A DNA stretch of 64,000 nucleotides from a bacterium (GCA_021802705.1 JAJZRL010000002.1:25913-89912); one strand, 5' to 3'; counted from the stretch's first letter, positions 330 through 58,594 are shown. Numbers and translations: made by a program. The notes: a model not told the origin generated them from the sequence alone.

Positions 330-893
330 CTAGAGTCCCGAAGCGAGGATACCTCGATTGATACGGGCAACGTACCCGGCACGTTCCCGTGCGATATCGG
401 CAAGGAGCGGACGGGTGAAATCAGAGGTTTTGCCAGGTATGCCTCCCGTATCGAGACCGAGGGTAGCGAGCAACCGGAGCACCGCGAGCACCTCAGCGGC
501 ATCATGGTCTTCTTCCGGCAATACCGCGAGCGCTTCGAAAAATCCTGCGAGTACCGGGAAAAGCTCGGGATCCTGAGCTTCGCCTGCAAACCGCAAAAAG
601 AGGCCGGACACGCGACCGGCCCGTTCGCGCGCCACGGGAGTGCGCATCCGCACGAACCAATTCTCAAAAGGAATCGCGCCCGCGAGCCTCCACCCCCCCT
701 TCCCGCGTACGAGAACGAATCCGCTTTCGACGAAAGTCGAAAGCGCGCCCGCGAGTTTCGCGCCAGAGAGGCGCGCGCCCTGCGCGCTCGCACGCACGAG
801 ACCGAGATCTTGTGTCATGAGCGTCATCAAGACGTTCGCTTCTCCGAAGAACGAACGCGCGAGCACGATCCCCCGCGTTTCGTACCTATGCCA
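330..893 (-). CDS. recO: DNA repair protein RecO (short form)
   Basis: C-terminal 187 aa of ORF 330..1112: MWHRYETRGIVLARSFFGEANVLMTLMTQDLGLVRASAQGARLSGAK... matches RecO N-terminal OB-fold pattern. Start chosen at the internal Met that avoids overlap with ileS. Confidence 0.55.
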   Translation of the reverse strand, partial: WHRYETRGIVLARSFFGEANVLMTLMTQDLGLVRASAQGARLSGAKLAGALSTFVESGFVLVRGKGGWRLAGAIPFENWFVRMRTPVARERAGRVSGLFLRFAGEAQDPELFPVLAGFFEALAVLPEEDHDAAEVLAVLRLLATLGLDTGGIPGKTSDFTRPLLADIARERAGYVARINRGILASGL

Positions 894-3800
894 CATCGCG
901 GACAAGATCGAAGCGGACGCGTCCTGTCGACAGCTCGACTTCATACGCGCCTTCGGTACGGATCTCGACGCGCACCGTATCCCTCGGCAGATAAGATTCG
1001 CTCTTGCGGGCTTCCGCAACGGCCCGTGCCATTTCGCGCTCGTCGCCTTCCTTGACGAGCTCGGGCGTGAGGTCGGTGTCGAGCTCGATAGATGCATGGC
1101 CGGTCGAAACATGTTTGACGTTCACTTCTTCCGCGAGAATCTGCGCGAGCTCCTTCTCGAGAAGGTCCGGTACGAGAAGCTTTGCAAGCGGTTGCCGCAC
1201 CCTGATGCCCGCTTTCTGGCGCAGCTGGAGCACATCGGAAGCGAGCGCCCGAACGCGCTCCATGCCGGAGAGGAGCGCGGCATCAGGCCACGCACGGATA
1301 AAGCGTCTCGTTTTCCCCGCAAAGGAATCGGACGGCCAATGGGCGAGGTGCACGCTTATCGTATCGTCCTCGTAGCGAACGCGATTGAAAACCTCTTCGG
1401 CGAGAAACGGCATGACCGGCGCGATAATCACCGAGAATTCGCGAAGCACGTGTCGGAGCGTCGCGAGCGCCCGCTCCTTATCCTTCTCATCGGAACCCTT
1501 GATCCTCTCGCGCGAACGACGGACATACCACGTCGAGAGATCTTCTATGAAGTCCCGCATGGGGCGCGTCCCGCGCGGGATATCGTACCGATCAAACGCG
1601 CTCGTTACGTCACGCACGAGCATGGAGAGGCGGAGCAGTATCCAACGGTCGAGCGGGTGTTCGCTCTCGATGGAAGGCGCGGCCGGCGGCCCCTCCTTCG
1701 CGAAAAGCGTGTAGAAAGAGAGGACGTTCCGCAGCATGTTCACCACCCGCGCATGCGCCTCGCGCACGTCTTCGTCGCGAAACACGAGATCTTCGGCCTG
1801 CATGATGACCGAAGACATGAGGTAGTAGCGGAACGCATCCGCTCCGTAGCGATCGAAGAGATAGAGAGGATCCGTATAATTCCCCTTGCTTTTGGAGATC
1901 TTCGCGCCATCGACAGCAAGCACGTTTCCGGTCGTCACGACATGACGGAAAGCGAGCCGGTCAAAAAGCTCGACGCTCATGGCATGGAGATAGTAAAACC
2001 ACGCCCGTGTCTGGCCGATATACTCCGCGACGAAATCGCCCGGCGAACGCTTCTCGAACTCACCCCGATTTTCAAAGGGATAATGGTATTCGGCAAAAGG
2101 CATCGCGCCGGATTCGACCCAGCAGTCGACGACTTCCGGAATACGTTTCAGCGCTTTCCCGTGTTCGTCCCTAAGCTCGAGCCGGTCAATGTATGGAAGA
2201 TGATAGTCGAGCTCGTAGTCGGCATTATGCGGCAAAGGAACGAAATCGAGCGCGAGCGTTTCTCCGGTCTTGAAATCTGATGTATGCACGATGTCCGCGA
2301 ACCCTTGCGTGTCGGCTCCGCGCGCGACGGCAAGGAGCGATTCGAGGCCTATCCCGTGCGTCACGATAAGCACGCGTTTCCCGCTCTCTGCCGCCTCGAT
2401 CTCATAGAGGAAGTCGCCGAACCGCCGTTTCGCTTCCTTGTAGCTTTCGCCGCCCGGCATAGCGTCAGTGAACGGCGACTCCTGAGCATCGCGATACGCG
2501 ACGAAATCCGCGAGCGGCTTCCCGGAGAGCGCCCCGAAATCAAGCTCTCGCAGCCGCTCGTCGAAGCGCAGGGCGGAATGCGGGATGCCGAGTATGGAAG
2601 CGACGACTTCGGCAGTCTCTTTCGTCCTCATGAACGGCGAAACGTAGATGATATCGATGCCCGTGTGCGAGAGCGTATGGGCGGCCTGGCGCACCTCCGC
2701 TTTCCCGCGCTCGGTGAGGTTATTGCTCAAGGGATCAGAGCTTACGATATTCTTGAGATTCTTTTCGCTCTCCCCGTGCCGCATCACGAAATACGTGTTT
2801 CCGCTTCTCTTCGTATGCGCTTTGAGCTCTTCGAGGGAGCCGATAATCGTCACGTTCCCTTCCTGGTCCTTCCATATGGGAAGCGGGCTCGCCCAGAAAC
2901 GATTGCGAGAAATCGTCCAATCCGGCGCGCTCTCGATAATATGCCGGAAACGGCCTTCTTTCAGGTGCTTCGGTATCCAGTCGATCTTTTCGTTTTCAGC
3001 AAGCATGCGCTTTTTAACCGACTGGATATCGATAAACCAGCTTGCGACGGCGTTATAGATGAGCGGCGTGCCGCAACGATAACAGTGCGGGTACGAGTGC
3101 GTGTGCGGCGCCTTGGCGAAAAACAGTCCGCGATCCTCAAGATCCTCTATGATCTTCGCGTTCGCCTTCCTGAGATATTCCCCGCGCAAAAACTCTGGAA
3201 CGTCGTCAGTGTAGGTACCGTTCGGATTCAAGAGCTGCACCATCGGCAGACCGTGCTTTTTGCCGAGATTAAAGTCGTCCTCGCCATACATCGGCGCGAT
3301 GTGCACGATGCCGGTGCCGTCTTCCGTCGTAACGAAATCGCCGGAACAGACGCTCCAGGTCCTATCATTTCTTTGCGCGATAATCGCGTCTATCCGATAC
3401 GGGGGTTCGTACTGCACGAATCCTCCTTTCGCATCCGTATGCGCCAACTCGCTTCCTTCGAAGGTCCGCTGCGGATCTTTCAATCCATAATCCGCCGCTC
3501 TCGCCTCGGCGAGGATGAGCGTCTCGCCGTCGTGCGCGTATGCGCCATAGCGGACTTCCGGATTGACCGCGAGCGCGACGTTACCCGGCAGCGTCCACGG
3601 CGTCGTCGTCCATGCGAGGAAATAAACGTCTCCCGCAAGCCCGAGGTTTCCGGGATCCGCCATCCTGAACTTGACCGTTACCGCCTCCTCGTCGATGTTT
3701 TTATACGTATTATCCATCGCGATCTCGGCCTTCGCCAAGGGCGTCTCGCAATGCGGGCAGTACATGAGCACCTTCCGTCCTTCATAGAGCCGGCCTTTCT

Positions 3801-4305
3801 TGTGGATCTCCTTCAGAGCCCACCACACGCTCTCGATGAAAGAGTTGTCCATCGTCTTGTACGAATTGTCGAAATCGACCCAGCGCCCGATACGTTCGAT
3901 ATACCGTTTCCAATCACGCACGTATGCGAGAACCATCTCCCGCGCGGTCTCGTTGAACTTTTCAATGCCAAGCGCAAGGATGTCCTTCTTGTTTTTGAGC
4001 CCGAGCGTTTTCTCGACTATCGACTCGATAGGAAGCCCGTGCGTATCCCACCCCCACCGACGACGGACGCGATACCCGCGCATCGTCTTATACCGCGGAA
4101 TGACATCCTTCGATATGGAAGAGAGCAGCGAGCCGGTATGCGGCAATCCGGTGGCGAACGGCGGGCCGTCGTAAAAGACGAATTCGCCTTTCGGTGCCTT
4201 CTTTTGGAGCGATTTTTCGAAAATATCGTTCTTTTTCCAAAAAAGGAGCGTTTCCTCCTCCTTCATTGCGACCTCCGACTTCGGTTCAGGACCATCCTTG
4301 CTCAT
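886..4305 (-). CDS. ileS: isoleucyl-tRNA synthetase with an inserted histidine-phosphatase-like domain
   Basis: 1139 aa with class I aaRS motifs: PFATGLPHTGS (HIGH-like), WTISRNRFWASPLPIW, KISKSKGN (KMSKS). Strong IleRS-like N-terminus (LLFWKKNDIFEKS). Residues ~500-700 carry an RHG phosphatase signature. Confidence 0.9.
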   Translation of the reverse strand: MSKDGPEPKSEVAMKEEETLLFWKKNDIFEKSLQKKAPKGEFVFYDGPPFATGLPHTGSLLSSISKDVIPRYKTMRGYRVRRRWGWDTHGLPIESIVEKTLGLKNKKDILALGIEKFNETAREMVLAYVRDWKRYIERIGRWVDFDNSYKTMDNSFIESVWWALKEIHKKGRLYEGRKVLMYCPHCETPLAKAEIAMDNTYKNIDEEAVTVKFRMADPGNLGLAGDVYFLAWTTTPWTLPGNVALAVNPEVRYGAYAHDGETLILAEARAADYGLKDPQRTFEGSELAHTDAKGGFVQYEPPYRIDAIIAQRNDRTWSVCSGDFVTTEDGTGIVHIAPMYGEDDFNLGKKHGLPMVQLLNPNGTYTDDVPEFLRGEYLRKANAKIIEDLEDRGLFFAKAPHTHSYPHCYRCGTPLIYNAVASWFIDIQSVKKRMLAENEKIDWIPKHLKEGRFRHIIESAPDWTISRNRFWASPLPIWKDQEGNVTIIGSLEELKAHTKRSGNTYFVMRHGESEKNLKNIVSSDPLSNNLTERGKAEVRQAAHTLSHTGIDIIYVSPFMRTKETAEVVASILGIPHSALRFDERLRELDFGALSGKPLADFVAYRDAQESPFTDAMPGGESYKEAKRRFGDFLYEIEAAESGKRVLIVTHGIGLESLLAVARGADTQGFADIVHTSDFKTGETLALDFVPLPHNADYELDYHLPYIDRLELRDEHGKALKRIPEVVDCWVESGAMPFAEYHYPFENRGEFEKRSPGDFVAEYIGQTRAWFYYLHAMSVELFDRLAFRHVVTTGNVLAVDGAKISKSKGNYTDPLYLFDRYGADAFRYYLMSSVIMQAEDLVFRDEDVREAHARVVNMLRNVLSFYTLFAKEGPPAAPSIESEHPLDRWILLRLSMLVRDVTSAFDRYDIPRGTRPMRDFIEDLSTWYVRRSRERIKGSDEKDKERALATLRHVLREFSVIIAPVMPFLAEEVFNRVRYEDDTISVHLAHWPSDSFAGKTRRFIRAWPDAALLSGMERVRALASDVLQLRQKAGIRVRQPLAKLLVPDLLEKELAQILAEEVNVKHVSTGHASIELDTDLTPELVKEGDEREMARAVAEARKSESYLPRDTVRVEIRTEGAYEVELSTGRVRFDLVRDVA

Positions 4306-8217: not shown

Positions 8218-9045
8218 TCAGACTTTCCAGTATTCCGGAACGAATGCTCCGTCCACTTCCTTGAAGTCCCCGAAGAGCTCGGGTACTTCAGCCAGCATGA
8301 TTTTCCCGATCTTTTTAAAAACGTGAATGATTTCTTCTTCGGCTCCCGTATCGGTGCGAAGCGCTATCACGTGCCGAAGCGCCCGCAGATTGAGCGACCA
8401 GACACCGCCGGTGGCTATGCCCATGCCGATACCACGCCGGAATGCCGATGTAAGCACTTTCTTCGCGTGGAACGTGCTTCCCGGTGACAGCTCGTCTTTC
8501 CAGATCGAAGCGAAAGCTACCATCATGGTCTCCTGGCTCTCGAATTGTGCCAGGAGTACTTCGCGGCTGTCCCGTTTCTTTTTGGCTATTTCAGGCGTGT
8601 CAGTGTCGTCCTCACGAAAACATTCCGGCATCCAGAACTTGATATCGGTATAGCGGATGTACCGCATACTCCGTTCCGAGATGCCGACACCCGCACGATG
8701 ACGATTCATCTCGCCCGTGAAGACGCGTGAGCATCCGTTTATGCCGAAGGTGAAGACCGCGTGCTCCATGACCGAGCCGTGCCGTTGCTTGAGGACGTTG
8801 TCGAGGTACTCGACCATATCCTTACGGACCTTGTTGACGTTCGGATTGAGGCCCGGCTGGAATGCCATATAACACTGCTTCGCTGCAAGCGCGACAAGCA
8901 GAGCAGGATCAGAAACCGACTCTTTCGAGGGGATCTCGAACTCGTCAGCACCCATTTCGTCGAGCCATTCGCGAACTGCCCCGCGGTCGACTTGTGTACG
9001 TGCAAGAACACGCACGGTGATTTCGTTGAAGGACTCCGCCATGAT
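8218..9045 (-). CDS. thyX: flavin-dependent thymidylate synthase ThyX
   Basis: ThyX signature NRHRAGVGISERSMRY (RHR...SxRY). Start at MAESFNEITV within ORF 8218..9123. Confidence 0.85.
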   Translation of the reverse strand: MMAESFNEITVRVLARTQVDRGAVREWLDEMGADEFEIPSKESVSDPALLVALAAKQCYMAFQPGLNPNVNKVRKDMVEYLDNVLKQRHGSVMEHAVFTFGINGCSRVFTGEMNRHRAGVGISERSMRYIRYTDIKFWMPECFREDDTDTPEIAKKKRDSREVLLAQFESQETMMVAFASIWKDELSPGSTFHAKKVLTSAFRRGIGMGIATGGVWSLNLRALRHVIALRTDTGAEEEIIHVFKKIGKIMLAEVPELFGDFKEVDGAFVPEYWKV

Positions 9046-9123
9046 GGCTCTCCTGTGAAAGTTGAAAGGTTTGGACGAACAACAATCCGTTCGGACTATA
9101 TGCGCGGAAAAGGTAAAAAGCAA

Positions 9124-17853: not shown

Positions 17854-18156
17854 ATGGTTGGTTTTTACACTAAGTTCACTACGAACGCAGAGGACAGAGA
17901 GAAACTCGTAGCCCTGCTTTCCAAAGCCTCAACGTCCATGAAAGAGGTCGCGAGTTGCAAGCTCTATGAGGTTGCATTAGATGCAATCGATCCGACAGTG
18001 ACTGTGGCGACCGAAATATGGACGGACGAGGCAACGCATGACGCATCACTACAAGGCAATACGGCAAAAGCACTCATCGTGCAGGCGATGCCACTAATGG
18101 CTGCGCCCCCGAAGCAAATCAAACTCGGCCCAGTAGTTACGAGCTGGTTCGATTAG
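17854..18156 (+). CDS. antibiotic-biosynthesis-monooxygenase (ABM) family protein
   Basis: 100 aa MVGFYTKFTTNAEDREKLVALL...CKLYEVALDAIDPTVTVATEIWTDEATHDASLQ with ABM fold pattern; local GC is lower than surroundings. Confidence 0.55.
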   Translation: MVGFYTKFTTNAEDREKLVALLSKASTSMKEVASCKLYEVALDAIDPTVTVATEIWTDEATHDASLQGNTAKALIVQAMPLMAAPPKQIKLGPVVTSWFD

Positions 18157-18165
18157 CTAAACATT

Positions 18166-18240
18166 TGGGCGACTACAGGGAATCGAACCCTGATCGAGAG
18201 CTCCACAAGCTCCAGTGTTAACCATTACACCATAGTCGCC
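18166..18240 (-). tRNA. tRNA-His (GTG)
   Basis: Reverse complement GGCGACTATGGTGTAATGGTTAACACTGGAGCTTGTGGAGCTCTCGATCAGGGTTCGATTCCCTGTAGTCGCCCA. Extra 5' G, anticodon loop TTGTGGA, cloverleaf pairs check. Confidence 0.85.
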
Positions 18241-18319
18241 ATACCGGACGCCCAATACGGCCTGAACCTTATTGAGGACCCACGTTTTATAACACACATG
18301 CTACAATGTTCCCAACCGC

Positions 18320-19018
18320 ATGGACGACGAATACGCCGGATCCGAGAGACTCGTCGAGAGCCTGAATGACGCTGCCGTACGCGAGGCGTATAAAACGCCT
18401 CTCGACGGATACCGGACGGGAATACTCCCCCGTTTCCTTGGAGAGATTCTCATCTGGTGCGGCAATACCGTCTATGGCCGATCGCCCTCCTATCTTAAGT
18501 TTCGTGCGGTCGAAGTCATCGCCCGCGTCCCGTACCATTCCTGGGCTTCGGCGGCCTTCACGCTCCTTACGCTCTTCTATACCGACGAGGCGCGTGCTCT
18601 TAAGCTCTCGACGGTGTCGCGCTTCTCCCGTTTCGCTTCCGACAATGAGACGATGCACGTTGTCGTGATTTCCGCCCTTGCGCGGAAAGAGCGCCCTGCC
18701 GGCATCGTACGCTACACGCTTATCCCGATGTTCTTCGCGTTCTTCTATTTCTGGGTGTCGTATTTCCTCTATCTCCTCAATCCGCGCTGGTCGCTTGAAA
18801 CCAACTATCTTTTCGAACAGCACGCCTTCGATCAGTACTCCCTTTTCCTCAAGGAGAACGAAGAGGTTCTCAAAACGAAAGTGATCGTGAGCGATTTTCT
18901 CGCATGGTACGGCCGGCATCCGAGAAGCCAGTATGAGTTCTTCGAATCGGTCCGAAATGACGAGCTCGTGCATCGCAACCGTTCGATACGCGAAATCGAG
19001 ACGCTGCAGACACCCTGA
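18320..19018 (+). CDS. alternative oxidase (AOX/PTOX-type di-iron quinol oxidase)
   Basis: All four di-iron motif regions present: VEVIARVP, NETMH, LETNYLFEQHAFDQYSLFLKE, RNDELVHRN. The larger antisense ORF 18287..19054 is judged spurious. Confidence 0.8.
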   Translation: MDDEYAGSERLVESLNDAAVREAYKTPLDGYRTGILPRFLGEILIWCGNTVYGRSPSYLKFRAVEVIARVPYHSWASAAFTLLTLFYTDEARALKLSTVSRFSRFASDNETMHVVVISALARKERPAGIVRYTLIPMFFAFFYFWVSYFLYLLNPRWSLETNYLFEQHAFDQYSLFLKENEEVLKTKVIVSDFLAWYGRHPRSQYEFFESVRNDELVHRNRSIREIETLQTP

Positions 19019-19054
19019 CCTTGCACAGACCGGTCCGGAGGAACGCGCGAGCAT

Positions 19055-19588
19055 TCAATACCGCGGGTTTTCCTCAGGAACACCCGAGAGATGGTTTGCG
19101 AGCCGGGCAAGCGCGAAAAGGAGCGACGAGAGGCGGTTCATGTAGGTTTTCGTTTCTTGGGTGATTTCGCGGACCTGCGCATCGCTTACGGCGATGATCC
19201 GACGTTCCGCTCGCCGCGCGAGCGTTCGCGCGACATCAAGGAGCGCGGAGAGCTCGGTCCCGCCGGCAATGGAAAATCCCTTGAGAGGAGGGATTTCCTT
19301 CTCGATGGCATTGATGACCGCTTCTACGGATTCGGTCCGCTCTTTCCCTATACGCTTATCCGCGCCCGCGATCTCGGCCTGGACGATAAAGAGCGTCTCC
19401 TGCGTTTCTTGCAACACCGCTTTGATGCGCGGTTCATCCTGCGCCCGTACTTTTACGAACCCGAGGAACGCGTTCAGCTCGTCGAGCGAACCGAGCGCTT
19501 CCGGAAGTTCCGAAGATTTCGAGATCCGTTGCTGGTCACAGCCAAACACTTTCGTCGTCCCTCCGTCCCCTTTGCCGGTATAAAGCAT
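19055..19588 (-). CDS. ATP:cob(I)alamin adenosyltransferase, PduO type
   Basis: MLYTGKGDGGTTKVFGCDQQRISKSSELPEALGSLDELNAFLGF matches the PduO/MMAB N-terminus. Start chosen downstream of the tRNA. Confidence 0.75.
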   Translation of the reverse strand: MLYTGKGDGGTTKVFGCDQQRISKSSELPEALGSLDELNAFLGFVKVRAQDEPRIKAVLQETQETLFIVQAEIAGADKRIGKERTESVEAVINAIEKEIPPLKGFSIAGGTELSALLDVARTLARRAERRIIAVSDAQVREITQETKTYMNRLSSLLFALARLANHLSGVPEENPRY

Positions 19589-19594
19589 AACGTG

Positions 19595-19678
19595 TGCGCA
19601 GGAGAGGACTCGAACCTCCAATCCCTTGCGGGAGCTACCACCTCAAGGTAGTGCGTCTACCAATTTCGCCACCTGCGC
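19595..19678 (-). tRNA. tRNA-Leu (GAG)
   Basis: Reverse complement GCGCAGGTGGCGAAATTGGTAGACGCACTACCTTGAGGTGGTAG...TCCTGCGCA. Long variable arm, anticodon loop TTGAGGT. Confidence 0.85.
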
Positions 19679-35278: not shown

Positions 35279-35354
35279 GCGCCCATAGCTCAGTCGGTAG
35301 AGCAGCTCCCTTTTAAGGAGACGGTCCCAGGTTCGAGCCCTGGTGGGCGCACCA
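35279..35354 (+). tRNA. tRNA-Lys (TTT)
   Basis: GCGCCCATAGCTCAGTCGGTAGAGCAGCTCCCTTTTAAGGAGACGGTCCCAGGTTCGAGCCCTGGTGGGCGCACCA. CCA encoded. Confidence 0.9.
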
Positions 35355-35822
35355 AAACGGGCTTATTATAAGCCCACCTGTTTGTACGATTTCTTGATGG
35401 TCTGGTTCTTTCTGGTTGCGGTAATATGCAGCTTCGAGAGCCAAAAGTGCTTCGAAAATCGGAGCTGGAACGGATTTTAATAACCCCCGTCCGGTCACTC
35501 AAAATGGTCACAGAAGAATATCGTGTAGTGCCGTTTGAGGTCGGATGAGGATTTCCTGCGCAATATCCACGCTCAGCTACCGCTGGTCTTCAAGACGAAG
35601 TAACAGGACTTTTGAATGGCGCTCGAAAGGAGTAAGATACAGGGGTGCGATATGGCCTAAACCTGGCTTCGGCTGGGCATGGCTACAAAACCAATCACGG
35701 TAGAAAGCTCCTCGTCAGGAGCAACCGTGATTGGTCATGTCGGGAAACTGGCATGGGTAGCGAAAGCTATCGCCTGGCGGGGAGCTTTTTGCATTGCTCC
35801 TTGTCGTTTCTTTCAAGACGAA

Positions 35823-36383
35823 ATGACAATTTCCTCAGAACAAAAAGATTTTATAGAAAAAGAGATTCTAAGTCGCACTTTGCAGGGCGCATTTCAACGT
35901 GTGCAGATATATGACAAAAGTGCGACGAACGAAGACCGTGAACAATTTCGTGAGATAGCAAGAAATCTTTTGCGCAAAAGTTCTGTGCCGTATCGTATAC
36001 GGAAGATATCATCGCAAGAACATATAAATAACATCGACACTCTTAAAAGTGAACTGAAGATCGTAAAATTCGGCGTGGCACAAAAGCTTCTTAATCTCTA
36101 TTTGAAATGGCTGTGGTGCGCCGGGTATCTGTATGATGCTCCGCCGCACTGTCCAATCGATTCGATTATCCTTGCAAAGATTAAGACACAAGAACCCCGC
36201 TGGCCTCTTTTGAGTAAAGAACTCTACGAAGAACGAGTTAGAAAGATTAGCGAAATTGCTCAACAAGAAGGTCTCGAAATAGCTTCATGGGAATTGCGTT
36301 TCTTTAATCACTGGAATCCTGCTTATGGAGCTGGGGATAAACCCGGTAGGAAGAAATCCGAGAAGGTTTTAAAACAAAAATAA
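35823..36383 (+). CDS. hypothetical protein, first gene of the low-GC island
   Basis: MTISSEQKDFIEKEILSRTLQGAFQRVQIYDKSATNEDREQFREIARNLL... About 187 aa with AT-rich codon usage unlike flanking genes. No family recognised. Confidence 0.45.
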   Translation: MTISSEQKDFIEKEILSRTLQGAFQRVQIYDKSATNEDREQFREIARNLLRKSSVPYRIRKISSQEHINNIDTLKSELKIVKFGVAQKLLNLYLKWLWCAGYLYDAPPHCPIDSIILAKIKTQEPRWPLLSKELYEERVRKISEIAQQEGLEIASWELRFFNHWNPAYGAGDKPGRKKSEKVLKQK

Positions 36384-36385
36384 CT

Positions 36386-36622
36386 ATGGGATGGGCAATT
36401 TTATGGGGAATGATAATTGGAGGAACGAGTAATAATAGCGGGGTCGGTTTTCTTGCCTTCATCATTATTTGGCTTTTCGTCGATGATAGGAATGCAACAA
36501 TTCATAATGCAACTGTAGTAATCAACAAACTGCAACAAAGGATAATTGAGCTTGAATCAGAACTTAGTATTGCAAGAAGTGCCAAACCAAAGAAACGGGA
36601 GAAAGAATGGAACGTCTTATGA
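36386..36622 (+). CDS. hypothetical small membrane/coiled-coil protein (island gene 2)
   Basis: 78 aa MGWAILWGMIIGGTSNNSGVGFLAFIIIWLFV...KLQQRIIELESELSIARS. Starts 3 nt after the preceding stop. Confidence 0.4.
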   Translation: MGWAILWGMIIGGTSNNSGVGFLAFIIIWLFVDDRNATIHNATVVINKLQQRIIELESELSIARSAKPKKREKEWNVL

Positions 36623-37296
36623 AGCAAATATGCCTCGGCATCATTTACGGTCTTGTTATCGCCATCGCCATAATACTCACCATCTCTTGGTATCAGAGTC
36701 AGCGCAAGGAAGTAAGCATGGCTTCTGCCGTAGTTGCTACCTCAACCGAGCCCTCTCAAATGAGCGAAGAGGATCAACAGTATGCCAAGATAAATCCGAA
36801 CTGCGCTTTGTATTACGAAAACTTAGGGGTGGGAACAGACTCTTTCTCTGTTGAGCTTTCTGACTTCACGAATCTACACCCGCTCGCTGACTTCCTCTGT
36901 GGCAAGTATTCAGATGTCATGAAAATGACTCTCTCTGATGGCAAGACCCTATACTTCATCGCTCCTATCTCCTCGTTAGGCTGTGGCAGTGGTGGCTGCA
37001 CCTACTATCCTATGCTTGAAGTCAGGCCGGGTGTAGTTCGTCATTTGCGAGGATTCGACGCCTATTCTGATGCAGGTTCGACAACTACAGCCACAGTGCA
37101 AAAAGATACTGATGGTTCGGTGTTCGGCTTCCTGTCTTTCGGCTCTCAAAGACACTCCGTGGATGTCTATTGGCACGAAAGTGCGCAATGCGGAACGACA
37201 AATACCTATGCCTTCAACAGTAAAGACGAACCTGTGTTAATCTCCGCGTCTGATAGTTGTTTACCTGGGAAGGGCATCTTATATCCGACGAAGTGA
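36619..37296 (+). CDS. hypothetical membrane-anchored Cys-rich ectodomain protein (island gene 3)
   Basis: MKQICLGIIYGLVIAIAIILTISWYQ TM then ...SSLGCGSGGCTYYP...CGTTNTYAF...SDSCLPGKG. Overlaps the upstream gene by 4 nt. Confidence 0.5.
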   Translation: MKQICLGIIYGLVIAIAIILTISWYQSQRKEVSMASAVVATSTEPSQMSEEDQQYAKINPNCALYYENLGVGTDSFSVELSDFTNLHPLADFLCGKYSDVMKMTLSDGKTLYFIAPISSLGCGSGGCTYYPMLEVRPGVVRHLRGFDAYSDAGSTTTATVQKDTDGSVFGFLSFGSQRHSVDVYWHESAQCGTTNTYAFNSKDEPVLISASDSCLPGKGILYPTK

Positions 37297-37411
37297 GGAC
37301 TCCTCGCTGCAGCATTTTGATAAACAGCAGTTGTTGCGCCATTTTATCCATATAATTTCGGTCTTGAAGTAGGTTTTTAGTTGCCTCATACTCGGGACAC
37401 CAAACAAGCGT

Positions 37412-47692: not shown

Positions 47693-48793
47693 TTACTGGT
47701 TCATCGGAGAAACCAGATAAAGAAGAGAAGCGTCCCCTACCCCGCGTATGATAAGCGGGCGGCCAGGACCGGCTGCTGAAAGCGAAATGCTTTCTGATTG
47801 AGAGAGAGCGAGTGCGGCGGAAAGATACCGATAATTGAAAGAGAGATCGAGCATGCTTCCGTTTACATGAGCAGGGATCGTTTCCGATGATTCCCCAAGA
47901 TCGGTATTGTGAGCGAAAAAAGAAATATGATTCTTTTTCGGATCGAACCGTATATTCACTTTTTGGAAGATGTCTGAAAAAATCGCTGTTTGTTTGAGGC
48001 TGATTTCGAAATCCTTCCGTAAAACTACGGCTTCGGCGAGCGATTCTTTCGGTATGATCTGACGATAATCCGGATAGGTCGCATTCGTAAGCCTTGAAAC
48101 GATCGTTCCCATCGAACCGATAAAGGCGCAATGGTGGTCGTCAAACGAAACGGCTATATCTTCATCGGGGAGCGCTTGGGCTATTTCAACCGCGTTCTTT
48201 GCAGGTATGAGGAGCTTGCCTTGAGTCCCCTTGTTCGTGAGCGGTATCTTCTTTTCCGCGAGCCTGAACGAATCGGTCGCCACAGCCGTCAACACCCCTC
48301 CTTCGATAGAAAGATAGATGCTTGCGAGCTCGGGTCGGACCGTTGAATTCGAGGTGCAAGACGTAAGCGAAGAAAGAAGCGTCCGCAGGAGAGCTCCGGG
48401 GAGCGTAATCGAGTTTTTCGGATTTTCGGGAAACGGGATCGAGGGAAAATCTTCGTAGGGGACGGTCTTGATCGAGCTTCTGCCCATACCGCTTGAGAGT
48501 GAGACTATGTCTCCTGAGTGTTCGAGCGTTACCGTACCGTCGAGCGTAAGCGAAGCGGCGATCTGCTGGAGGAGCGTCGCTGGGATTGCAACGACACCGT
48601 CAGACACGCGAGTTCCCTCAACGGTAAGATCGATCCCTGTTTCAAGATTGGTCGCGCGCATCTTTATCCCTTCATCGCTGACGATGATGAGGATCGAAGA
48701 GAGCGCCGGGAGCGTCGCGCTTTTACGTTCCGCGAATCTTGCAACCTTATACACAGCATCTATAAATTTCTTCTTTTCTATTGAGATATTCAT
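47693..48793 (-). CDS. dnaN: DNA polymerase III beta sliding clamp
   Basis: MNISIEKKKFIDAVYKVARFAERKSATLPALSSILI... with three-domain clamp pattern, 366 aa. Confidence 0.85.
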   Translation of the reverse strand: MNISIEKKKFIDAVYKVARFAERKSATLPALSSILIIVSDEGIKMRATNLETGIDLTVEGTRVSDGVVAIPATLLQQIAASLTLDGTVTLEHSGDIVSLSSGMGRSSIKTVPYEDFPSIPFPENPKNSITLPGALLRTLLSSLTSCTSNSTVRPELASIYLSIEGGVLTAVATDSFRLAEKKIPLTNKGTQGKLLIPAKNAVEIAQALPDEDIAVSFDDHHCAFIGSMGTIVSRLTNATYPDYRQIIPKESLAEAVVLRKDFEISLKQTAIFSDIFQKVNIRFDPKKNHISFFAHNTDLGESSETIPAHVNGSMLDLSFNYRYLSAALALSQSESISLSAAGPGRPLIIRGVGDASLLYLVSPMNQ

Positions 48794-48905
48794 ACAAGTC
48801 TTTTATTAGAGCTGTTGATAACGGGATAACGATAAGGGTGGCTTAAAATAATGGTTTTTCCTGTTGAGGCATCAACACATTGTGTTGATAAGTGTCGCCG
48901 CACAT
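48794..48905. promoter_or_regulatory. candidate oriC / DnaA-box cluster between dnaN and dnaA
   Basis: AT-rich spacer with TGTTGATAA (one mismatch to TGTGGATAA) at 48813..48821 and 48883..48891. Perfect inverted repeat ATCAACACA-T-TGTGTTGAT at 48871..48889. Confidence 0.4.
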
Positions 48906-50258
48906 TCATACAAGGAGCGTCCGGATATTTTGAATTTCTTTTGCGAGCTCGGTATCCACAACAACTTCACGCTTTATCTTCTCACAGGAGTGGATAACCG
49001 TCGTATGATCGCGTCCGCCGAGCTTCGTGCCGATTGTCGGGTACGAGATATTAAAATCCTCCCGCAAGAGATACATGATGACCTGTCTCGGCCGTACCAC
49101 TTCCCTTCTGCGCGTTTTTTCATAAATACTCTCTTCATCGATCCCGTAGAATTCCGCAACCTTATCGACTACATTCTTAACCGAGACGTTTTTTTGCGGA
49201 CGCATGAACGAGCGTAGCGATTGCCGTATTTCAGCTATATCCGGCGGAGACCCCTTCACCTGAGCATGGCAGATGATGGTATTTACCATACCCTCCAATT
49301 CCCGTATCGATCCGGTTATGGAACATGCAACATACTCAACAACTTCATCGGAAAGCATGATCCCATGAGCAGCGGCCTTTTTCTTGATAATAGCCATACG
49401 CGACTCCGTATCGGGCTCCCCGATATCGACAGCCATACCGCTCGCTAACCGCCCCTTAAGGCGTTCTGTGATATCAGGGATAGCGACAGGTGGCCGGTCG
49501 GACGAAAAGACGATCTGCTTATTCGTATCGTACAGGGCGTTAAAGAGATGGAAAAGCTCTTCCTGGGTCTTTTCTTTCTTTGAAAGAAATTGCACATCAT
49601 CCATGATAAGGAGGTCATATTGACGGTACTTATCCTTAAACCGGTTTGCCGTGCCGGCTTGCACGGAGTCGGTATAATCGACGGCGAATTTTTCGGACGT
49701 AAGATAAAACGCTTTCCGACCCGGATACTGTTTTTTAAATTGATTACCGATAGCTTGTATGAGGTGTGTTTTCCCTCTTCCGGTCGCGCCATAGATAAAG
49801 AGCGGATTATAGGAGATACCCGGGCGCTGCAGGGTTGCTTGCGCGGCCGTATGCGCGAGCGCATTGAACGAACCGACGATGAACGTATCGAAAGTGTAAC
49901 GGGGGTTCAGATTATCGCTTTTATTGATATAGAACTCATGCAGAGGAAGCTCGATAACACCCCGGACCGGCTTCGATTCCTTTACGACCTTACGCCGATC
50001 ATCTTTTACGATGAGGTACTCTATATTGCGGAACTCGTATGATATACCCCGAACTATCTTTAGTAGAAGCGCGTGAAATTTCTTAAGGTACCAGTCTTTG
50101 AAAAACTGGCTCGGAACCCCGATATATACCACCCCCTCGTCATCTATCTTTACTATGAAGCTATTACGGAACCATGTATTGAAATTCGCCGGAGATATGG
50201 AAAGTTCGACCTGGGTGAGCACGTATTCCCATAACTCCCGAGGATTCTTCCTATCCAT
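48906..50258 (-). CDS. dnaA: chromosomal replication initiator DnaA
   Basis: GATGRGKTHLIQAIGN Walker A, FLSKKEKTQEE, and a C-terminal DNA-binding helix (IGTKLGGRDHTTVIHSCEKI). Confidence 0.9.
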   Translation of the reverse strand: MDRKNPRELWEYVLTQVELSISPANFNTWFRNSFIVKIDDEGVVYIGVPSQFFKDWYLKKFHALLLKIVRGISYEFRNIEYLIVKDDRRKVVKESKPVRGVIELPLHEFYINKSDNLNPRYTFDTFIVGSFNALAHTAAQATLQRPGISYNPLFIYGATGRGKTHLIQAIGNQFKKQYPGRKAFYLTSEKFAVDYTDSVQAGTANRFKDKYRQYDLLIMDDVQFLSKKEKTQEELFHLFNALYDTNKQIVFSSDRPPVAIPDITERLKGRLASGMAVDIGEPDTESRMAIIKKKAAAHGIMLSDEVVEYVACSITGSIRELEGMVNTIICHAQVKGSPPDIAEIRQSLRSFMRPQKNVSVKNVVDKVAEFYGIDEESIYEKTRRREVVRPRQVIMYLLREDFNISYPTIGTKLGGRDHTTVIHSCEKIKREVVVDTELAKEIQNIRTLLV

Positions 50259-52795: not shown

Positions 52796-54046
52796 TTAGT
52801 TTAAAGGTTGCAACGTAAATTGGAGGTTTGGTTGACAAATATAATTATTACTCGAATTGGTGAAATTTGAGAAGGATGTGAATTTGCTAATGATAGAATT
52901 CGCCTGGTTCGCATCAGCAGAATCGAAGCAATAGTATGTTTGATCAAAACATTTTTTACTAGCGCTTCCTGATACTGGTGTTGAGTATGAGGGACAGCTA
53001 GTTTGTGAAAAAAGAGCGGTAGTTTGATTGGTACATACATAGCCGCCATCTGCATTACAGCCGTTTATAAACTGCGATAGAGACGCGCTCGTCTGAGCGT
53101 CAAAGGGCTCCAAGTTTGCGGTTGTCATTGACTGTGCTCCGATATCCATGAGCAAATAAGACTGAGGCGATGCCCCCTCGCAGCTAACAGTCGCTTGAAG
53201 ACAGCCGCTAGAATTAGAAGACGTGCAAGTTACCGAAGAACTATTAGCTCCAAAAAGGCCGAAAAAAGAAGTGCTGCAATTATTTGAAAGCCACTGCTTT
53301 GCAATATTGTCAGCGCTAAGCCCGCCCTTAGCCGCGCAACTCGCGGTTTTTAAATAACTAGTACCAGTAACAGTGCAACCGGTAGCGCTATCGACTGTCG
53401 TAGGGATAGAGTTGTTACCACCTCCCGCAAAAGATGCCGTTTTTAGATTAAGTGGCGGGATATTGAGTGAGAGGTTCAGGATACTCGGATTGATGATGCT
53501 AAAGACGAGGACCGGCGAGAGGACGAGAACGAGACCGAGAAGAGCCTGCGTGATGCGCTTCTTGCCGTCGCTTTGCTTGCTTACGCTGTCTTTCGTCGAT
53601 ATCTCGAGACCACCCCATATGATCATGATAACCGCAAGGATAGCCGCAACGCCGATGAGATATTTATAGAGGTTGTTGAGGAAATTGGAGAGCCCGCTCG
53701 AATTTGCCACGGTTCCTTGCGTAAGGCCGGGAATTCCGGCAAGAGGGACGAATCCGCTGGTGTTTGAGCCTTGCGACGAGACTGTCGTGTTTGAAGGATT
53801 ATTGCTTGCATTTGTTGTCGGATTTGTCGTTTGTCCGGTAGCGCTTGTTCCTGCCGAGGAGCTGGAACCCGATGCTTGGCACGTCATGCTCGCGCCATCA
53901 TATGAAACCTGACACGTGCCGTTCGCACCCGATGACGTGCTGCACGGGACCCCGACGTTTTGGTTCGTACAATCAGTGATCAGCGCCGCATGTGCCACGC
54001 CGACCGTGCCGAGCATTACAAGCGTGAGGAAAGCGAGTTTTTTCAT
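52796..54046 (-). CDS. secreted S/T/N-rich protein with VirB2/TrbC-pilin-like hydrophobic segment
   Basis: Signal peptide, then FVPLAGIPGLTQG...LSNFLNNLYKYLIGVAAILAVIMIIWGGLEI resembling VirB2/TrbC pilin cores. Long Cys-rich C-terminal domain with markedly low GC. Confidence 0.45.
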   Translation of the reverse strand: MKKLAFLTLVMLGTVGVAHAALITDCTNQNVGVPCSTSSGANGTCQVSYDGASMTCQASGSSSSAGTSATGQTTNPTTNASNNPSNTTVSSQGSNTSGFVPLAGIPGLTQGTVANSSGLSNFLNNLYKYLIGVAAILAVIMIIWGGLEISTKDSVSKQSDGKKRITQALLGLVLVLSPVLVFSIINPSILNLSLNIPPLNLKTASFAGGGNNSIPTTVDSATGCTVTGTSYLKTASCAAKGGLSADNIAKQWLSNNCSTSFFGLFGANSSSVTCTSSNSSGCLQATVSCEGASPQSYLLMDIGAQSMTTANLEPFDAQTSASLSQFINGCNADGGYVCTNQTTALFSQTSCPSYSTPVSGSASKKCFDQTYYCFDSADANQANSIISKFTSFSNFTNSSNNYICQPNLQFTLQPLN

Positions 54047-55047
54047 AAGCCGAATAGGTTACCGCTCCCCTGCGTTTCGAAAGAAAGCGGCAGAACCGTC
54101 GTCGCCTTTATGAAATCTCCCGAAGAACCGACGAGCGAAAGCGATGCGCTGCCCTTCCCCGATCCGGTTGGCCGGAGCGTTATCAGGTTGCCGGTTTGTG
54201 AAAGCGCGTTATTCAAAAACCATTGAAGCGCCGGCGCGCCGGTTCCGGTCGGGAAGGAGAAAGGAGCCGCATAGAGAGATGTTTCTGTTCCGGTGATAGT
54301 GTATCCTCCCGAAAGCGTATGGTCATAGAGAATGCCGAGGAGCGGATCGTTTATATAGATACGCACGGTCGGTTCCTGAGCCGTAAGCGAAACGGATGCT
54401 CCGCCCACAAAGACTCCATTCTGGCTCTCGACGACAACCGAGACATTCCTACTACGGTACTGGAGCGGCGAGGCGACAATGATGGCTTCTTTTCCGATAC
54501 CCGAAACGCTCGATATGCTCGCCCCGTCCACCGTCCACGCGTACGAAAGCGTGGCGGGATCGAGAGGCTTCCCCGCGGCGTTCCTAATGTCTGCCATCGC
54601 AACGACGCGTACGGTCCCCTCAAGCGGTACGAGCGGGTTCCCCGGATAGAGCGCCGGCGCCGAAGAGATCGGCTCGGCGATAAGCACGACATCCTGCGGC
54701 CGTACGGAGACGCTGCGGCTGTACGTTGTTCCTCCCGATGAGATGACCGCTTTGATTGTCGTAAGGCTCCCCGCTTCCCCGAGAGGAATGCTGACCGGCT
54801 GCACATTTCCTGAATAGGTTTCCTTGCCGTTGACGAAAACCGTCATCGTCGCGTTTGCCAGGTTGAGCGATGTCGAAAGCGCGGTAAGGGTTACCGAGCT
54901 CGAAGGAGAAGGGTTTTGCGGGCTTATCGAAAGAGAGAAAGGATCAACGCTGTTGACATTGAACGATTGTGCGCCGGCTAGAACGGGCAAGAAAAAAGCA
55001 AGCCCGAGGAAGGTGATGCGAAGTGGCCGGAATGAGAACCCTTTCAT
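54043..55047 (-). CDS. secreted hypothetical protein with Ig-like repeats
   Basis: 334 aa with signal peptide MKGFSFRPLRITFLGLAFFLPVLAGAQS. 4-nt overlap with the upstream gene. Confidence 0.5.
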   Translation of the reverse strand: MKGFSFRPLRITFLGLAFFLPVLAGAQSFNVNSVDPFSLSISPQNPSPSSSVTLTALSTSLNLANATMTVFVNGKETYSGNVQPVSIPLGEAGSLTTIKAVISSGGTTYSRSVSVRPQDVVLIAEPISSAPALYPGNPLVPLEGTVRVVAMADIRNAAGKPLDPATLSYAWTVDGASISSVSGIGKEAIIVASPLQYRSRNVSVVVESQNGVFVGGASVSLTAQEPTVRIYINDPLLGILYDHTLSGGYTITGTETSLYAAPFSFPTGTGAPALQWFLNNALSQTGNLITLRPTGSGKGSASLSLVGSSGDFIKATTVLPLSFETQGSGNLFGL

Positions 55048-55077
55048 TGCTCTTAGTATATCGCGTGCGCAAGAACT

Positions 55078-55707
55078 TTATGCGGCTTTGCGCACATCGT
55101 CGGGGATTTCATCCATACTCTCATCATTTGCCGCTTCGGCCGCTTTTATTTGTGTGATTTGCGCGGCTATCTGAGCCTGTTCTTGCCTTCCGGATTCGGC
55201 TTGCTCGCTCTCGTATCGTGCCAACGCCTCCCGATCCCGCTTTATTTGAGAGTGATACATCTTGAACGTAGTGCCGGTGAGTCCCGGCAATGAGCCGATA
55301 AAGGGCGTCTCGCTTATGAGAAGGCCAAACATAAACCAAAGCATATTGCCCGATGATTCCTTGAAGATACGCGCATTGGTGAGCATGATCATCAACCCAA
55401 CCGTAAGCCATCCGAAGAAACCAACCGCCACCGCCAAGATGATTCCGAGAACCTCAAGAGCAGGCCCGATGACGAATCCGGAGACACCTCCGCCCGCGGT
55501 GCCGAGAATACTGCTGATCCAAGTACCGAACAAACCGCTTGTTGCGGCAGTCGTACCGACGCCGATAAGGACCGGCCCGAAAAACCAAAACTGTTCGAAG
55601 AGGAACCGGACCGCATCAAAGACGAGCGCGGTTGTCATGACCGGCATCGCCCGCGTCCAGGTCATAACGCGCGGAGGCTCTTTACTGCTGTTTCTGCGTG
55701 AGATCAT
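55078..55707 (-). CDS. polytopic membrane protein (possible VirB6/TrbL-like channel component)
   Basis: 209 aa with at least 4 TM helices and a C-terminal coiled/charged tail. Its 5' end overlaps the VirB4 gene 3' end. Confidence 0.4.
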   Translation of the reverse strand: MISRRNSSKEPPRVMTWTRAMPVMTTALVFDAVRFLFEQFWFFGPVLIGVGTTAATSGLFGTWISSILGTAGGGVSGFVIGPALEVLGIILAVAVGFFGWLTVGLMIMLTNARIFKESSGNMLWFMFGLLISETPFIGSLPGLTGTTFKMYHSQIKRDREALARYESEQAESGRQEQAQIAAQITQIKAAEAANDESMDEIPDDVRKAA

Positions 55708-57505
55708 GTCGTTCTTTTTCCCCTTTTATCGCGAGAAGCTGCGAAGGGTCTGACGTGATGATCTGGTCTTCGGTATAGCTTGCGACGATCTTTATCGCGA
55801 CATGCTTCAGTCCCGCAAAGAAGAGCCCTTCCCCGACGCCTGCTTCAAGGAGCAGATATTTCTCTTCATCGGTCAGACTGAAGGTTTCTTGCAAGACCTT
55901 GATGCTTGTCGGAGATTGTTTCAGCAGGAGCTGCAACGAGGAGTTCGCAAGGATCGGCCGCCCATACGGGCTCCTGATGAAATCTTCGACATCCTGCGTT
56001 ATGGTGCAGACGCCGAGGTAGTACTTGCGGCCGCGTTTCGCGACGGAATACAAGAACGAAGCCGTATCTTCGCTTTTCATCATCCACCACGCCTCGTCGA
56101 TGACAAGCAGGCGCTTTTTCAACTCGTGACGTATCGCGTTCCATATGTAATGCGTCACGATATACATCGCCACCGGCTTGAGCTCGTCTTCCATATCGCG
56201 TATCGAGAAAACGGCGAATTGGTGCCGGAAATCGACATTCGTCGGCTGATTGAGGAATCCGGACCACGTGCCGCGGGTATATTTGGAAAGCCTCTCGACG
56301 AGAGACTCGCTCCCTTCCATGCCGGAGAGCACCTGTTCGAAATCGGAAAGCAGCGGGGGCTCGGCGCCGGTGAAATCGGCGTCGCCAGTGATGTCTTTCA
56401 GCGCATAGGTTTCGCTGACCGCGCGATCGATGATGGCATCTTCTTCCGGGGTGAGTCCGCCAAGCATGATGCGGAAGAGCCCGACAAGCGCGATGATATT
56501 GGAGCGCAAGATGTCCCGCGGATCCTCGTCTTCTTTGACCGGCGGCAGGTCGAACGGGTTGATGTGGTGTTCGGAAGAGAGCGAGATGCGGAACGAACGG
56601 CCTCCGGTCGCTTCCGCAAGCTGTCCGTACTCCTGTTCAGGATCGATGACGATAACGTCCGCGCCGAACATGAGCGAACGAAGTATCTCAAGCTTTGCGG
56701 AGTAGCTCTTGCCGCTGCCGGATTTCGCGAAAACGACCGAATTGTAGTTCTCAAGCGAGAAGCGATCGAAGAGGATGAGCGAAGAATTGTGCCGGTTGAT
56801 GCCATAGAGAATGCCGCGGTCGCTCGTAAGGTCGAATGAAACGAAGGGGAATATGGAAGAAAGAGGAGAAGAGTTCAATTTCGAATTGACGAGGAGCTCG
56901 TCGGTCCCGAGCGGCAGGCAGGACCGGAATCCTTGTTCCTGCTGGAAAAGGGCTGGTTTGGTATATACGAGCTTTGAATCAAGGATGCTGCGGATATCAC
57001 CCTCGGTCTTGCTTATCTCTTCTTTTGAATCGCCGTAGAGCGCAAGATAGAGTCCGACATCGAAAAGCTTCTCCTGTGCCTGCTGGAGATCGTTTCGCAG
57101 GTTCTCCAGGTCCTGATATGCAGTATCAAGGAGCGGGTCGCGTACCAGACCCTTTGCCTCACGGTCGTTTATCTGGCTCTGAACCTCGGCGACCTTTTTT
57201 TGGAAGCCGCGAAGCGCTTGTTCGGTTTCGATGGGATGGATGAATATGGAGATATCAAGCACCTTGTCGAGGTTGATGACCGGAGAAAACCAGCTGTCGA
57301 CGAGAAAGCGCGGGTATGAAATGGTATAGAATGCTCGAACGAATTTCTCACCGAGCTCGACTTCCCTCGAGCTTATCTTAAGCGCCGTCGGAGCGATCGT
57401 ATCGATGAGATCGAGAGATCCCTGCTGGTAGATGTCTTTCGGAAGGACCGGCATTATTTCCGGCGTTTCTTCTTTTTTGCGATTGAGAAAATCGAGGAGC
57501 GACAT
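55682..57505 (-). CDS. VirB4/TrbE-family type IV secretion ATPase, ATPase portion
   Basis: Walker A VVFAKSGSGKSYSAK, Walker B LLVIDEAWWMM (DEAW hallmark of VirB4), 607 aa. Confidence 0.8.
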   Translation of the reverse strand: MSLLDFLNRKKEETPEIMPVLPKDIYQQGSLDLIDTIAPTALKISSREVELGEKFVRAFYTISYPRFLVDSWFSPVINLDKVLDISIFIHPIETEQALRGFQKKVAEVQSQINDREAKGLVRDPLLDTAYQDLENLRNDLQQAQEKLFDVGLYLALYGDSKEEISKTEGDIRSILDSKLVYTKPALFQQEQGFRSCLPLGTDELLVNSKLNSSPLSSIFPFVSFDLTSDRGILYGINRHNSSLILFDRFSLENYNSVVFAKSGSGKSYSAKLEILRSLMFGADVIVIDPEQEYGQLAEATGGRSFRISLSSEHHINPFDLPPVKEDEDPRDILRSNIIALVGLFRIMLGGLTPEEDAIIDRAVSETYALKDITGDADFTGAEPPLLSDFEQVLSGMEGSESLVERLSKYTRGTWSGFLNQPTNVDFRHQFAVFSIRDMEDELKPVAMYIVTHYIWNAIRHELKKRLLVIDEAWWMMKSEDTASFLYSVAKRGRKYYLGVCTITQDVEDFIRSPYGRPILANSSLQLLLKQSPTSIKVLQETFSLTDEEKYLLLEAGVGEGLFFAGLKHVAIKIVASYTEDQIITSDPSQLLAIKGEKERHDLTQKQQ

Positions 57506-57519
57506 AGTTTTATAATAGG

Positions 57520-58152: not shown

Positions 58153-58153
58153 A

Positions 58154-58594
58154 TTATAGGTTCGTATTATCGGAGGTATCCTGTGTCGATTTTACATCAA
58201 GCGACCAGGCAAGTTCCGAGAGTTTCCCGCGCGTGAGCTTCGGGGTGCCGCGCGTCGGTTGCTCTTGAGGCATTGCCGCTGTCGCGCCGCCGGCGCCTTC
58301 TTTCTTTGCTTCCCCTTCTTCGTGTTTCCATAGGAAGAGCCTTGCGCGGGTGTAGTAATTGAAACCGGCTTCGAGTATTTCGACGAAAGGCTTCCCGTTC
58401 ATTTTGTAGAACGCGAGCGCTCCCGCGAGTGCCACGACGGGTATGGAGAACAGGAGCGCAAGCACGATTGGAAGGTAGACGAAGAATATCGCGCAAAAAC
58501 CGCCCGCACCGGCGACGTAGATGAACTGCTTCAGGGTTAGAGGCCCGACGATTCTATCCTCGACATCGATGAACTGCGGCACTTGATACTCCAT
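58154..58594 (-). CDS. VirB3-like small membrane protein
   Basis: 146 aa MEYQVPQFIDVEDRIVGPLTLKQFIYVAGAGGFCAIFFVYLPIVLALLFSIPVVALAGALAFY; two TM helices, immediately upstream of the VirB4 ORFs. Confidence 0.45.
   Translation of the reverse strand: MEYQVPQFIDVEDRIVGPLTLKQFIYVAGAGGFCAIFFVYLPIVLALLFSIPVVALAGALAFYKMNGKPFVEILEAGFNYYTRARLFLWKHEEGEAKKEGAGGATAAMPQEQPTRGTPKLTRGKLSELAWSLDVKSTQDTSDNTNL

Follow-up and report, generated by a model that had tools for sequence, protein, structure and literature searches.

Introduction

The closest described relatives of the gene treated here are two kinds of di-iron oxidase of the superfamily PF01786, namely the mitochondrial and proteobacterial alternative oxidase (AOX, a ubiquinol oxidase), of which the Trypanosoma brucei enzyme (TAO, PDB 3vv9) is a solved example, and the plastoquinol (plastid) terminal oxidase (PTOX) known from plastids, cyanobacteria and their phages. 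In the candidate phyla radiation (CPR), genomes without the rest of the chain have also been described to encode a terminal quinol oxidase, cytochrome o/bo3 of Parcubacteria and Saccharibacteria, and in Parcubacteria a cytochrome o oxidase without other chain components was read as serving O2 scavenging (PMC5220378, PMC12577380). On how CPR bacteria or Patescibacteria handle or use oxygen, published work has concentrated on superoxide dismutase (SOD), for which an enrichment was seen in the Patescibacteria of oxic wells (PMC8672522), and on cytochrome o oxidases, which occur occasionally. Here we describe a compact AOX-like gene on a stretch of 64,000 nucleotides of bacterial DNA (GCA_021802705.1 JAJZRL010000002.1:25913-89912, hereafter the window), which looks like a typical chromosome segment of the ultra-small Paceibacteria (CPR/Patescibacteria).

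Our search of the literature on AOX, PTOX and K17893 in CPR found no study analysing the family to which this gene belongs. The single mention that came up concerns a CPR hit, whose origin was ascribed to transfer out of Proteobacteria (PMC9540462). According to a survey of oxygen reductases from December 2025, AOX is restricted among prokaryotes to Alpha-, Beta- and Gammaproteobacteria and PTOX to Cyanobacteria; the survey states that taxa represented solely by metagenome-assembled genomes (MAGs) were unsampled (PMC7618691). Already known are database labels such as 'alternative oxidase' and 'ubiquinol oxidase'; new are the recognition of a distinct, compact and CPR-centred branch and its unusual conservation.

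A compact di-iron protein of the AOX/PTOX superfamily

We assign the gene to the AOX/PTOX group because its product exceeds the cutoff of PF01786, has invariant ligands together with an invariant Tyr, aligns in register with TAO and carries its hydrophobic helix at the same place. The analysis confirms it as a genuine member of this group with conserved ligands. The 232-aa open reading frame (ORF) scores 29.4 bits with the Pfam AOX model (cutoff 22.7, E 7.9e-7), whereby the aligned part comprises residues 106-220 only, and its relatives score 21.6-38 bits with the same model. None of the NCBIfam models matches the protein. The four di-iron motif regions of AOX that had been claimed by an earlier description of this DNA, made by a model from the letters alone (the sequence-only reading), are all present (Table 1), and the proposed check with the AOX model came out in its favour.

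The six ligands are distributed over the four motifs in the pattern E, ExxH, E, ExxH and align with those of TAO. E65, E110, H113, E166, E215 and H218, as well as Y173, are invariant in 86 out of 86 homologues, one being the copy in the window and the others coming from 85 fetched loci, and in motif 1 K60, A68, R69 and Y72 are unchanged in the same set. Y173 lies seven residues past the Glu of motif 3 and is aligned with the Tyr of the TAO sequence '...EEEAVITY'. In the TAO structure the iron ligands are E123, E162/H165, E213 and E266/H269, and the catalytic Tyr is Y220. A family profile widened with distant relatives (A2), which was needed to reach TAO in the PDB, matches T. brucei AOX with E 5e-9 and brings all four motifs into register, the corresponding TAO segments being LETVAGVPG, ENERMHL, LEEEAVITY and IRADEAEH.

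The protein has a single strongly hydrophobic, aromatic-rich helix. In a Kyte-Doolittle plot (19-residue window) the maximum of 1.76 falls on residues 134-152, and the aligned segment of TAO is at the same time the TAO maximum (2.26). By analogy to the TAO structure, this helix is presumed to act as a monotopic membrane anchor. An AlphaFold2 model was obtained with pLDDT 79 and pTM 0.79, and in a Foldseek search with this model the 14 best matches were all TAO, with TM-scores of 0.57-0.63; the fold is therefore AOX-specific and not that of a generic ferritin-like bundle. Identity as a generic ferritin or rubrerythrin was rejected. Neither a match to another ferritin-like family nor a loss of the di-iron ligands on alignment, both of which the sequence-only reading had named as fatal to its proposal, was observed.

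On the opposite strand a shadow ORF (18287..19054, minus strand) overlaps the AOX-like gene, and frequent small 'families' overlapping AOX are of the same nature.

Table 1. Positions of the AOX-like gene, its motifs and the features discussed with it, counted from the first nucleotide of the window.
Feature	Position	Strand	Remarks
ABM-domain protein, small, stand-alone	17854..18156	+	100 aa; Pfam PF03992 30.2 bits (cutoff 23.1)
tRNA-His(gtg)	18167..18239	-	ARAGORN; Rfam RF00005 63.5 bits; between ABM and AOX ORFs
AOX/PTOX-superfamily di-iron carboxylate gene, compact, Paceibacteria clade	18320..19018	+	232 aa
Motif 1, KFRAVEVIARVPY (K60-FRAVE65VIARVPY)	18497..18535	+	E65 first iron ligand (TAO E123); aligned to TAO LETVAGVPG
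Motif 2, DNETMHV	18641..18661	+	E110, H113 correspond to TAO E162, H165
Sole strongly hydrophobic, aromatic-rich helix, residues 129-153	18704..18778	+	Where TAO has its most hydrophobic helix
Motif 3, ETNYLFEQHAFDQY (E160TNYLFE166QHAFDQY173)	18797..18838	+	E166 corresponds to TAO E213; Y173 to TAO Y220
Motif 4, RNDELVHRN	18953..18979	+	E215, H218 correspond to TAO E266, H269
PduO-type cobalamin adenosyltransferase-family gene (Cob_adeno_trans)	19055..19588	-	Pfam PF01923 E 6e-44; convergent with AOX
tRNA-Leu(gag)	19594..19678	-	ARAGORN; overlaps longest Cob_adeno_trans ORF (19055..19621)
Fe/Mn superoxide dismutase-family gene	62561..63151	+	Sod_Fe_C E 2e-19; DLWEHAF motif; 43 kb from AOX, unlinked

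Relation to AOX and PTOX

A phmmer-type scan of 1.84 billion cluster representatives yielded only 312 relatives at E <= 0.001, which form three sets: a tight one with more than 40% identity, proteins of 230-290 aa with 25-35% identity, and longer proteins with ~30-35% identity over 130-150 residues. The longer proteins reach ~100 bits with PF01786. We treat them as PTOX-type because one member shows 44-54% identity (tblastn) to genes that carry the annotation plastoquinol terminal oxidase in cyanophages, a label with one tblastn check behind it. In a neighbour-joining tree (distance-based, 230 columns, 100 bootstraps, TAO as the one AOX reference) the family, its sister clade and the two taken together are each supported by 100%, apart from the PTOX-type sequences, and the branch of TAO, which is very long, lies outside the Paceibacteria clade. 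The separation from PTOX-type sequences appears robust in this tree, which does not fix the deep branching order. Two placements were rejected. A position within the mitochondrial/proteobacterial-type AOX clade is at odds with the differing motifs and with the missing match to TAO by phmmer or a narrow profile, and a position within the PTOX clade is at odds with the separation at 100% bootstrap and the missing tblastn match to phage PTOX.

Among characterised types, the PTOX-type proteins come nearest to the family (phmmer E ~1e-8 to 1e-10, ~30-35% identity over 130-150 residues). PTOX belongs to the same superfamily and has the same E/ExxH/E/ExxH ligands and Tyr, and the window family has the same forms of motif 1 (E-x-I-A-R-V-P-Y) and motif 3 (E-x-H-A-x-x-x-Y). 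H168 of the window protein is also PTOX-like, whereas AOX has Glu at this position. In contrast, PTOX proteins are 270-350 aa long compared to ~230 aa in the Paceibacteria family, and motif 2 reads NE(L/M)HHLLIME in PTOX and NETMHVVV(I/V)S in the family, whose motif 4 is RNDE..HRN.S. Unlike the setting of PTOX, the host here is non-photosynthetic and without a plastoquinone pool. With T. brucei AOX the protein shares six ligands and the catalytic Tyr in register as well as the place of the hydrophobic helix, but the AOX signatures LET(V)AGVPG, NERMHL and LEEEA are absent from the window family. The same holds for RADEAHH, the fourth AOX signature. In addition, R118 of TAO is replaced by Lys (K60), E215 by His and T219 by Gln or Ser.

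Distribution and inheritance

The family comprises more than 1000 clusters (90% identity level) that are 60-84% identical to the window protein, with at least 158 species-representative genomes encoding a member. The named clusters belong to Kaiser-, Yonath-, Nomura- and Adlerbacteria, Paceibacterota or Minisyncoccota, and members are labelled 'alternative oxidase', 'ubiquinol oxidase' or 'hypothetical' in their sources. The clade is almost entirely made up of Paceibacteria, plus a small nested archaeal offshoot.

The closest genomes keep the order tRNA-His(-), AOX(+), Cob_adeno_trans(-), L19 and pseudouridine synthase. AOX identity to the relatives ranges from 62 to 81% and tracks that of L19, L11 and NusG, well above PilM with 24-76% (median 37%) and above other neighbours; in five loci (L018-L022) AOX is still 72-73% identical to the window copy at a PilM identity of 33-36%. 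The G+C content at third codon positions (GC3) of the AOX-like gene is 0.70, within the range of its neighbours (0.65-0.78). Native GC3, conserved synteny and divergence in step with ribosomal genes indicate that the gene is vertically inherited under very strong purifying selection and was not recently transferred. The horizontal origin considered by the sequence-only reading is therefore not borne out; recent horizontal transfer was rejected on the grounds of neighbour-like GC3, a divergence that tracks L19, L11 and NusG, and the Paceibacteria-wide occurrence of the family.

On an archaeal contig, beside rpoH-rpoB''-rpoB'-rpoA', we found a protein 42% identical to that of the window (P0123; L090 7001..7696). 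Together with four relatives it forms a small subclade nested inside the bacterial family, which implies a transfer from a bacterium to an archaeon. Among the MAG records with the Paceibacteria-type gene, many bear the title 'uncultured Candidatus Saccharibacteria bacterium' (L009, L016, L023, L026 and others) and single ones 'Gammaproteobacteria' or 'Bacillota'. Such titles are unreliable as taxonomy because some of these loci are syntenic with Kaiserbacteria-like genomes.

Gene neighbourhood of the AOX-like gene

The divergent pair of tRNA-His (minus strand) and AOX (plus strand) is kept in 11 of the 15 related loci that were scanned. A scan for promoters and terminators between 17.4 and 19.7 kb gave nothing above the shuffled expectation, and Rfam gave no matches around AOX beyond the two tRNAs. 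When the intergenic regions between tRNA-His and AOX were aligned, the sole features to emerge were a -10-like box near the ATG and a short TTTATA(A/C)CA element, in the nearest relatives, and no regulator site was recognisable in these regions. On the other side, Cob_adeno_trans is the most frequent downstream neighbour of AOX (21 loci), a pairing that reflects synteny and not an operon. The longest ORF of this gene in the window starts at 19621 and overlaps tRNA-Leu, so that M12 at 19588 is the likely start.

Neighbours that suggest a redox function are each found in only 2-6 of the 86 loci. In one lineage of Paceibacterota a complete cyoABCD operon with haem O synthase (UbiA-family) adjoins AOX (L002 5630..11803, L003 3050..9205), and AOX is here flanked by an ArsR-type regulator and DUF488. 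A PQQ-type dehydrogenase lies 21 nt upstream of AOX in L004 and L005. ArsR occurs near AOX in six loci and AhpC in four. The gene directly upstream of AOX, oriented alike, encodes a NirK-like two-domain multicopper protein in two loci (L080 237..1493; L069) and a DsbD_TM/CcdA-like membrane protein in three (L018-L020, e.g. L019 994..1701). The genes of the sister clade (L089 3949..4833, L091 3002..3847, L092 3068..3913) show two types of context: one is an oxidative-stress island with a Fur-family gene, 3-4 rubrerythrins, rubredoxin and MsrAB, the other a position beside a HisKA_3/GerE two-component system, directly upstream of an MMPL transporter.

Proposed function

We consider the protein to be a compact, membrane-associated di-iron quinol:O2 oxidoreductase of the AOX/PTOX superfamily, specific to a Paceibacteria clade and serving O2 scavenging and redox balancing, and we would put the probability of this reading at roughly 0.6. 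By homology, a four-helix bundle would hold two irons via E65, E110/H113, E166 and E215/H218, and with the helix of residues 129-153 the enzyme would dip into a single membrane leaflet. Near K60, E65, H168 and Y173 there would be a binding site for a lipid-soluble quinol; two quinols would be oxidised and O2 reduced to water, with no pumping of protons. With little or no respiratory chain, such activity would keep intracellular O2 low and re-oxidise the available quinol pool, which may be supplied by a few quinone-reducing enzymes or by quinone scavenged together with host lipids. The gene would act as a stand-alone unit, transcribed divergently from tRNA-His. Quinol as the donor, water as the product and the scavenging role are drawn from what is known of related enzymes, and O2 scavenging or detoxification, as put forward by the sequence-only reading, seems to us the most reasonable interpretation. 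The oxygen- and quinol-linked neighbours in relatives (cyoABCDE, PQQ-type dehydrogenase, AhpC, ArsR, NirK-like, DsbD_TM) count in its favour as scattered context. The proposed logic is the same as for the cytochrome o/bo3 oxidases of Parcubacteria and Saccharibacteria (PMC5220378, PMC12577380), but these are haem-copper, multi-subunit and proton-pumping enzymes of an unrelated family, whereas the present candidate would be a single small di-iron protein that does not pump.

Several observations weigh against a quinol oxidase. CPR bacteria are generally reported to be without electron-transport chains (PMC8672522), and within the window we found no gene for quinone biosynthesis and no quinone reductase. 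A respiratory complex or NDH-2 was likewise not found within the window, 64 kb being too little to settle the question for the whole genome. No characterised enzyme is close to the family, which is ~14% identical to TAO; single-sequence phmmer and a narrow 16-sequence profile recovered no AOX among PDB sequences, and tblastn of the window protein gave no match to phage PTOX. The position of TAO T219, an inhibitor contact, is taken by Gln or Ser in the family, and the AlphaFold2 model is of moderate confidence, with pLDDT 64-72 over residues 70-130. Clustering of the 86 loci revealed no conserved operon partner that would indicate the substrate, immediate neighbours being highly variable, and the pairing of some sister-clade members with MMPL lipid transporters leaves room for a lipid substrate.

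The main alternative is a repurposed AOX fold. The protein would then be a di-iron enzyme of the membrane, such as an oxygenase, a hydroxylase or a desaturase, or a detoxifier of peroxide or NO, and would work on a lipid-soluble substrate other than quinol, e.g. a scavenged host lipid or isoprenoid. We regard it as rather unlikely, if a serious competitor. The lack of a visible quinone pathway in the window and the wide separation of the family, as a clade of its own, from AOX as well as PTOX would agree with it, as would the apparent operon of sister-clade genes with MMPL lipid transporters, the NirK-like gene directly upstream in two Paceibacteria lineages and the AhpC gene nearby in four loci. 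However, the protein agrees exactly with TAO in the placement of all its ligands and of the catalytic Tyr, a quinol oxidase operon adjoins AOX in one lineage, and the suggestive neighbours are each confined to the few loci noted above. To our knowledge, moreover, all PF01786 proteins characterised so far are quinol oxidases.

The ABM gene and the question of an oxygen-reactive module

The sequence-only reading had joined the AOX-like gene and its neighbour into one module. The neighbour was correctly described as an ABM-family gene of low G+C content: besides the Pfam match it hits PDB 4dn9 with E 8.7e-6, and its G+C content of 0.512 and GC3 of 0.56 compare to a window mean of 0.555 and to neighbouring GC3 values of 0.65-0.78. 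The idea of a horizontally acquired ABM-AOX module, functionally tied to SOD, draws on this atypical composition, on the location of both ORFs on the same strand at a distance of 163 nt, and on the use of O2 by both families as generally known. Nevertheless, it is largely refuted and we consider it quite improbable. Between the two ORFs lies tRNA-His on the opposite strand, which the sequence-only reading had overlooked, and none of the 85 other loci has an ABM homologue at a distance of up to 10 kb from AOX (0/85). The closest syntenic relative (L001) has the tRNA-His/AOX pair without ABM. Homologues of ABM are very scarce, with 8 clusters in 5.8 billion proteins. They abut tRNA-His in three other contigs, and no AOX follows in L087. 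For the AOX-like gene itself, GC3 is native and divergence keeps pace with that of the ribosomal genes nearby. Finally, an SOD-family ORF does exist where it had been reported, but at a distance of 43 kb it is unlinked; its N-terminal domain is unmatched in Pfam, and NCBIfam SOD models align over residues 20-194 below their cutoffs.

We attribute the adjacency of ABM and AOX to the fact that each gene independently sits beside tRNA-His. The low GC3 of ABM makes it, and not AOX, the likelier newcomer, and it is probably an unrelated accessory gene that was acquired more recently. ABM is a neighbour only, not a conserved partner of AOX, and an operon or module is not supported.

That the AOX-like protein is instead a non-catalytic relic or an iron-storage, ferritin-like protein would agree with the ferritin-like four-helix bundle of its core, but given the AOX-specific fold and the invariant ligands we hold this to be extremely improbable.

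Further features of the window

Apart from the region around AOX, the window contains genes for aminoacyl-tRNA synthetases, ThyX, dCTP deaminase, type IV pilus proteins, a cluster resembling a type IV secretion system (T4SS), DnaA/DnaN, PolA, RuvABX, a penicillin-binding protein (PBP), G6PD, ComEC and SOD. On the minus strand at 886..4305, a class I tRNA synthetase (Ile/Val/Leu-type) of 1139 aa carries a His_Phos_1 domain (E 1e-32) inserted at residues 506-672; such a histidine-phosphatase insertion in a tRNA synthetase is an unusual domain fusion. A flavin-dependent ThyX is encoded at 8218..9123 (minus strand), where the syntenic relative L001 has ThyA and DHFR (1191..2640). Right after tRNA-Lys (35279..35354) a low-GC island (35279..37300) stands out with 0.43-0.49 compared to 0.56 for the window. 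Pfam matched neither of the two ORFs scanned there, 35679..36383 and 36607..37296, and the island holds a third, short one (36386..36622); it may be an element integrated at the tRNA. The DnaN-DnaA pair at 47693..50258 shows locally lower G+C content and marks a likely origin region. It is followed by the T4SS-like cluster (52796..58594) with a T4SS pilin, a P-loop ATPase of TraG/VirB4-type and a PrgI-family protein.

Significance

The family described here falls outside the prokaryotic range of AOX and PTOX used in recent histories of oxygen reductases (PMC7618691), and the reading of CPR AOX as a transfer from Proteobacteria does not fit the Paceibacteria clade. The AOX-like gene appears important to its carriers because its conservation is about that of ribosomal proteins in genomes that have discarded nearly all they can spare. 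As a single small gene it makes heterologous expression a feasible test. In a bolder form, which we put forward tentatively and consider possible although doubtful as a whole, the family would be a third prokaryotic branch of AOX/PTOX, a core gene of many Paceibacteria that was passed to archaea, and it would act as the main O2 consumer of symbionts that are taken to be purely fermentative, running on quinones pirated from the membrane of the host or on a donor other than a classical respiratory quinol. If the donor is indeed a host-derived quinone, this would add a new facet to the dependence of CPR bacteria on their hosts.

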